Notes under the pieces: model-generated
What the model was told of the DNA's origin: nothing
Database searches by the model: none
The model's input: the letters and a program-made list of their open reading frames with translations, nothing else
Shown here: positions 10,558 through 11,356 of the stretch, in pieces
Layout: every line of letters begins with the position of its first letter
How positions within the stretch are numbered: position 1 is the first letter of the stretch
Source: Escherichia coli
Lineage (GTDB): Bacteria; Pseudomonadota; Gammaproteobacteria; Enterobacterales; Enterobacteriaceae
Reading direction: 5' to 3' (one strand)
Length of the DNA: 64,000 nt
Assembly (NCBI RefSeq): GCF_024298765.1
Contig: NZ_CP101210.1
Position numbers and translations under genes: made by a program

Positions 10558-10932
10558 GTGTCAGACACGCTCCATGAAACAAATTATCCCGACGACAACA
10601 ACGACCGCCCCTGGTGGGGGCTACCCTGCACCGTGACGCCCTGTTTCGGGGCACGTCTGGTGCAGGAGGGCAATCAGTTGCATTACCTTGCCGACCGCGC
10701 CGGTATCAGAGGGCAGTTCAGCGACGCGGATGCATACCATCTGGACCAGGCTTTTCCACTGCTGATGAAACAACTGGAACTCATGCTCACCATCGGTGAA
10801 CTGAATCCCCGCCATCAGCATACCGTCACGCTGTATGCCAGAGGGCTGACCTGCGAAGCCGACACCCTCGGCAGCTGTGGTTACGTTTATATGGCTGTTT
10901 ATCCGACACTGGCACCCGCAACCACCTCATAA
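10558..10932 (+). CDS. CbeA-type antitoxin (YeeU/YafW/YfjZ family)
   Basis: Strong recalled similarity to K-12 YeeU ([23 protein letters not shown]...); GTG start. Confidence 0.8.
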
Positions 10933-10978
10933 CCCCGAATATCTCACCTTTAGCACTACCAGTTACAGAGAACTTAAG

Positions 10979-11356
10979 ATGAAAACATTACCTGACACAC
11001 ACGTACGGGAGGCATCGCGCTGCCCGTCTCCCGTCACCATCTGGCAGACACTGCTCACCCGACTGTTGGACCAGCATTACGGCCTCACACTGAATGACAC
11101 ACCGTTCGCTGATGAACGTGTGATTGAGCAGCATATTGAGGCAGGCATTTCACTGTGCGATGCGGTGAACTTTCTCGTTGAAAAATACGCACTGGTACGT
11201 ACCGACCAGCCAGGATTCAGCGCTTGTACCCGTTCTCAGTTAATAAACAGTATTGATATCCTCCGGGCCCGCCGGGCAACCGGCCTGATGACCCGCAGCA
11301 ACTACAGAATGGTGAACGACATCATCCGGGGTGAACATTCGGAGGCGAAACGATGA
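10979..11356 (+). CDS. CbtA-type toxin (YeeV/YkfI/YpjF family; cytoskeleton-targeting type IV toxin)
   Basis: Strong recalled similarity to K-12 CbtA paralogs ([30 protein letters not shown]...). Confidence 0.8.

Follow-up and report, generated by a model that had tools for sequence, protein, structure and literature searches.

Identification of the gene pair

Positions 10558 to 11356 of the window, the 64,000 nucleotide stretch of Escherichia coli DNA analysed here, raise the question of whether two adjacent genes form an intact toxin-antitoxin (TA) system of type IV, of the CbeA/CbtA type, by which mechanism such a system would act, and whether it contributes to the stability of the genomic island in which it is found. 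The first part of the answer is straightforward: the pair is an ordinary, intact and already annotated copy of the well-studied CbeA/CbtA type IV TA family. By analogy with the characterised systems of E. coli K-12, we regard it with good confidence as a functional-looking member of this family, located at the end next to the tRNA in a P4-like cryptic island at aspV, which would act by the published mechanism.

The antitoxin gene of the cbeA/yeeU family (10558..10932, + strand) starts with GTG, ends with TAA at 10930-10932 and encodes a protein of 124 amino acids that is identical to WP_001285481.1. The toxin gene of the cbtA/yeeV family (10979..11356, + strand) extends from an ATG to a TGA at 11354-11356, and its product of 125 amino acids is identical to WP_000854737.1. 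As read from the sequence, a Shine-Dalgarno motif GAGGA (10546..10550, + strand) lies 7 nt 5' of the antitoxin GTG and a spacer of 46 nt (10933..10978, + strand) separates the two genes, while the toxin ATG is preceded only by a weak purine-rich Shine-Dalgarno sequence (AGAGAA, 10967-10972). The toxin stop codon overlaps the ATG of the next open reading frame (ATGA, 11353-11356). An antitoxin gene 5' of the toxin gene on the same strand, with a short spacer between them, is the layout of type IV systems of the CbeA/CbtA type. The boundaries set by PGAP (RefSeq) in E. coli strain 64.1 are the same for both genes, so that the initial description of two full-length, uninterrupted genes, the first with a GTG start and in the order antitoxin-toxin, holds in every respect; cbeA of K-12 likewise begins with GTG. 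The product names given in strain 64.1 are, for WP_001285481.1, “type IV toxin-antitoxin system YeeU family antitoxin” and, for WP_000854737.1, “TA system toxin CbtA family protein”.

The family assignment was confirmed by Pfam matches over the full profiles, together with the PGAP annotation and the homology to K-12. The antitoxin matched CbeA_antitoxin (PF06154, with the members YeeU, YafW, YfjZ and YagB) at profile positions 1-100 of 101 with an E-value of 5.8e-54 and 181.3 bits (cut-off 27), and the toxin matched CbtA_toxin (PF06755, with the members YeeV, YkfI and YpjF) at positions 1-112 of 112 with 2.2e-63 and 211.6 bits (cut-off 25). Among the solved structures, the antitoxin aligned end to end with two YeeU-family proteins, 2inw (8.9e-75), deposited as a “putative structural protein”, and 2h28 (E. 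coli YeeU, 1.3e-71); about ten substitutions, all located outside the core, and a one-residue indel in the C-terminal tail set it apart from them. The same search with the toxin returned no relative, the CbtA family toxins being without a solved structure. Neither protein matched an NCBIfam model, where the neighbouring RadC alone scored, and in PHROGs the toxin matched only a group of unknown function.

Distribution of the pair in Escherichia coli

The pair occurs once within the window, and a query of 1.3 kb spanning it found matches in 4924 of the 5426 complete E. coli genomes (over 90%), with a median of 3 and a maximum of 14 places per genome. In 162 complete E. coli genomes, among them those of the strains Nissle 1917 and ABU 83972, the identity of the DNA reaches 99% or more. 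Public databases already contain both exact proteins, the toxin being recorded on 311 contigs and the antitoxin on about 1000. Homologues of the toxin form at least 2555 clusters at 90% identity; among the clusters listed, nearly every one that has a name is designated as a toxin or CbtA-family toxin. A literature search for the allele of this pair in Nissle 1917 or CFT073 yielded nothing specific.

Comparison with characterised systems and proposed mechanism

The three homologous pairs of K-12 provide the experimental background. The toxin shares 85%, 64% and 60% identity with CbtA, YpjF and YkfI, and the antitoxin 86%, 68% and 63% with CbeA, YfjZ and YafW, respectively. The closest relative is thus CbeA/CbtA (YeeU/YeeV) of the cryptic prophage CP4-44, with which the pair shares the Pfam families, the gene order antitoxin-toxin-yeeW and the GTG start of the antitoxin. 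Toxin residues 28-106, including F65, are identical to those of K-12 CbtA, and, further upstream, the DNA of the RadC gene (yeeS-like) and of the DUF987 gene (yeeT-like) shares 95% identity with CP4-44. The locus differs from CP4-44 in its position at aspV, in its spacer of 46 nt as opposed to 88 nt, in the C-terminal tail of the toxin, which is unlike that of CbtA, in the N-terminus of the toxin, where K-12 CbtA reads VLPGQAASSR (with R15) and the window toxin a different sequence with C15, and in a gene of 645 bp (214 amino acids) between the yeeT-like gene and the antitoxin gene, which is absent from CP4-44. YfjZ/YpjF (CP4-57) and YafW/YkfI (CP4-6) are more distant: their identity is only 60-68%, their spacer is 20 nt (the K-12 pairs thus span spacers of 20-88 nt), and they lack both the 14-residue N-terminal extension of the antitoxin and the C-terminal tail of the toxin. 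YpjF and YkfI nevertheless carry Cys at toxin position 15, as found here, and the CP4-6 pair lies, like the pair described here, directly beside a tRNA attachment site and is transcribed towards the tRNA (thrW-ykfI-yafW).

According to published work on the K-12 orthologues (Heller 2017, PMC5624674; Wen 2017, PMC5371832), the toxin inhibits FtsZ and MreB, whose filaments are stabilised by the antitoxin; the published genetics also show that the mechanism is conserved in YpjF and YkfI. The mechanism quoted in the initial annotation is this published one, and by homology it would extend to the allele in the window. By analogy with CbtA, YpjF and YkfI, toxin in excess would bind the H6/H7 loop of FtsZ via a surface that includes F65 and would probably also bind the flat face of the MreB double protofilament, whereby division and elongation would be blocked and lemon-shaped or filamentous cells would result. 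The antitoxin, by analogy with K-12 CbeA, would not bind the toxin but the polymers of FtsZ and MreB, promoting their bundling and thus rendering the targets resistant; such neutralisation on the side of the target, without contact with the toxin, is known for K-12 CbeA only (cited in PMC5624674 and PMC5371832). For the K-12 family, roles in oxidative-stress tolerance and biofilm formation have also been described (PMC5371832), and a 2024 study lists CbeA, YagB and YfjZ among the proteins translocated by an F-type secretion system (PMC11288057). Deletion of the toxin gene ypjF in K-12 reportedly causes sensitivity to oxidative stress.

Targeting of FtsZ by the toxin is well supported by homology. 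The toxin carries F65, a residue that it shares with all of the aligned K-12 toxins and with 50 of 50 full-length homologues; CbtA, YpjF and YkfI each lose FtsZ binding on the substitution F65S (Heller 2017, PMC5624674). However, family membership is no guarantee of the targets, as follows from the CbtA/CbeA pair of Erwinia amylovora, a validated TA system of the same Pfam families (PMC6521040). Its toxin conserves both F65 and R15 and yet bound neither FtsZ nor MreB in the yeast two-hybrid assay (PMC6521040); it was not toxic to E. coli and caused elongation only (PMC6521040). With K-12 CbtA, the E. amylovora toxin shares only 63% identity, in contrast to 85% and an identical core for the toxin in the window.

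Targeting of MreB is likely, but less secure than that of FtsZ, and for this part the mechanism transfers to the window allele with less certainty. Position 15 of the toxin is Cys, preceded by Arg14, in place of the R15 of K-12 CbtA, and the substitution R15C in K-12 CbtA abolishes MreB binding and gives filaments (PMC5624674). The haplotype with Cys15 might therefore act on FtsZ only, or reach MreB via other determinants, and produce filaments instead of lemon-shaped cells. Such an altered target range would agree with the contrast between the first 27 residues of the toxin, which evolve almost neutrally (omega 0.76), and the core, which is free of non-synonymous changes, and with the existence of two discrete N-terminal haplotypes in the family. 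On the other hand, C15 is the natural residue of both YpjF and YkfI, and YpjF nevertheless retains MreB binding and produces lemon-shaped cells; the opposite substitution, C15R, is without effect (PMC5624674). R15 is thus not family-defining, C15 being also the commoner state in the family, and we consider a change of targets in the window toxin doubtful.

Selection and sequence variation

Calculated by the Nei-Gojobori method against the K-12 genes, dN/dS was 0.225 in the toxin gene and 0.284 in the antitoxin gene. In the toxin core (amino acids 28-106), 18 synonymous differences from K-12 cbtA are accompanied by 0 non-synonymous ones, which indicates strong purifying selection. Among 50 full-length homologues, conservation reaches at least 90% at 72 positions, and the toxin follows the family consensus at every one of them; it departs from the consensus of at least 80% at two positions only, both located in the variable C-terminal tail. 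Judged by these comparisons, the two genes go well past anything that chance would produce, and both are intact and have been kept so by selection.

The junction of the two genes is hypervariable. The stretch 10908..11021, which comprises the C-terminal tail of the antitoxin, the spacer and the first approximately 14 codons of the toxin, is the only one that megablast did not align to cbeA-cbtA of K-12, and its flanks are 85-91% identical to K-12. The N-terminus of the toxin occurs as two discrete haplotypes, an SRC-type one of 11 residues, found here and the commoner of the two, and the SSR-type one of K-12 CbtA (PVLPGQAASSR), both of which are found in mosaic combinations with different C-terminal tails. 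These haplotypes might mark functionally different classes of toxin, for example with or without engagement of MreB, or they might be co-tuned with the hypervariable antitoxin tail, although we regard either idea as very improbable.

Of the at least 99% identical matches, only that of Nissle 1917 was compared with the window at every base, and it deviates at one of them, G11061A, which replaces R28 by Q in the toxin. All of the K-12 paralogues have R at this residue, as does the window toxin, so that the change may lie in the Nissle-type toxin with its Q28.

Genomic neighbourhood and expression

The pair is located in a run of genes on the same strand within a decaying P4-like island beside aspV. 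The window is collinear with the genome of strain 64.1, with 99.84% identity over 25.7 kb. Upstream of the pair, the run comprises DUF905 (7103..7336), DUF932 (7436..8257), a small hypothetical gene (about 8257..8502, according to the annotation of strain 64.1), antirestriction (about 8596..9069), RadC (about 9085..9561), DUF987 (9624..9845) and the gene of 214 amino acids (9864..10508, + strand). Downstream follow a yeeW-like DUF5983 pseudogene, usually the third gene of the cassette (11353..11845, + strand), an IS630 (about 11924..12912, - strand) and an IS66 (about 13060..15320, - strand), both with a frameshifted transposase, DUF957 (about 15364..15558) and, beside aspV, DUF4942 with an internal stop (about 15640..16497). 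The tRNA-Asp(GTC) gene aspV (16618..16694, - strand) is the attachment site of the island, beyond which dnaQ, rnhA and core genes are found; a second tRNA-Asp(GTC) gene (24843..24919, - strand) is located in an rRNA operon, after its 5S rRNA gene. To the left of the window, strain 64.1 contains the sole integrase open reading frame of the module (200 amino acids, just outside the window) and, farther left, the continuation of a larger composite island, which includes genes for a TonB-dependent receptor and for sugar utilisation as well as a two-partner secretion locus. At 452..4817 (+ strand), the island of the pair carries three genes which, according to strain 64.1, encode a dynamin family protein (798 amino acids), an RdcB-family diguanylate cyclase regulator (301 amino acids) and a patatin-like phospholipase (356 amino acids), and which overlap or adjoin one another in a tight, operon-like cluster.

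The yeeW-like gene is translationally coupled to the toxin gene via the ATGA overlap. In comparison with the intact copy of strain GN04530, it is broken by a 4-bp tandem duplication of CGTT (11557..11560), as a result of which its DUF5983_N and DUF5983 C-terminal domains lie in two different frames according to Pfam; PGAP marks it as “frameshifted” in both 64.1 and Nissle 1917. In GN04530, the DUF5983 gene has the DUF957 gene as its neighbour; here, the inserted IS630 and IS66 lie between the two.

This decay suggests a second reading, according to which the open reading frames of the pair are intact but the locus is a silent remnant that is no longer expressed or used. The frameshifted yeeW-like gene, the internal stop of DUF4942 and the two frameshifted IS elements within 2 kb are in line with it, and so is the R28Q change in the Nissle-type allele, that of most of the at least 99% identical genomes, at a position invariant among the four proteins of the K-12 comparison. 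Furthermore, a scan for sigma-70 consensus promoters on the + strand between 6500 and 12500 found none, and the K-12 paralogues show low transcript levels (Wen 2017, PMC5371832). The strong long-term purifying selection, the lack of private substitutions at conserved positions and the presence of the exact proteins on hundreds of contigs speak against a remnant, which makes this reading unlikely. In the favoured reading, the pair is probably transcribed at a low level together with the upstream genes of the same strand (DUF932, antirestriction, RadC, DUF987 and the gene of 214 amino acids); as predicted from the Shine-Dalgarno sequences, ribosome binding is strong at the antitoxin gene and weak at the toxin gene. 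Terminator-like hits were weak and located inside open reading frames.

Two other roles found no support in the searches. With permissive thresholds, Rfam returned no RNA family between 8500 and 12500, so that nothing points to an RNA antitoxin or a riboregulator; PADLOC returned no match to a defence system for the pair or for six of its neighbours, which leaves a role in phage defence unsupported.

The 214-amino-acid open reading frame directly upstream of the antitoxin gene belongs to a large family (3611 representatives at E-values up to 1e-3), and in 1928 of the 5426 complete E. coli genomes (about 36%) the stretch from DUF987 via this gene to the antitoxin gene has a coverage of at least 80%. 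Neither the protein nor 99 of its homologues gave a convincing match to a Pfam model. AlphaFold2 predicted its fold with very high confidence (pLDDT 96.5, pTM 0.89); the model has no relative among the solved structures, and in the BFVD it matched uncharacterised phage proteins only. Its nearly invariant residues include G77, F78, Q81, G82, D83, G84, A85, F87 and G89, as well as D108, Y139, H141, R172 and W177. Some databases label it “antitoxin of toxin-antitoxin stability system”, for which a literature search found no experimental basis. That this gene is a third working partner of the pair is conceivable but, in our estimation, very improbable.

Possible stabilisation of the island

The initial annotation further suggested that the pair may stabilise the island. 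It might do so as an addiction module, the longer-lived toxin killing any cell from which the aspV island has been lost. Such behaviour is common for TA loci on mobile elements (general knowledge; examples in PMC5371832), and the outermost position of the pair on the tRNA side of the island would be compatible with such a function. However, the suggestion finds no support in the K-12 paralogues. Deletion of all three antitoxin genes of the cbeA family in K-12 had no effect on growth, the operon is subject to autoregulation by neither partner, and each of the three antitoxins neutralises all three toxins (PMC5371832). In addition, such loci are present in several copies per genome, with 5 in the best-matching genome, the above-mentioned median of 3 in E. 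coli, and up to 8 copies of CbtA in ST73 strains in a published survey (PMC10790755), so that loss of the island would leave other antitoxins in the cell and the toxin would not be unopposed. The element also looks immobile, with an integrase open reading frame of only 200 amino acids in strain 64.1 and the insertion of the frameshifted IS630 and IS66. In view of the remaining paralogous antitoxins and the apparent inability to excise, classical addiction is rated as quite unlikely.

Significance

As a copy of a known type IV system, the pair matters little beyond its correct annotation and challenges no current understanding of the family. The combination of a core identical to that of K-12 CbtA with a Cys15 like that of YpjF makes its toxin a reasonable natural variant for asking which residues of these toxins bind MreB.
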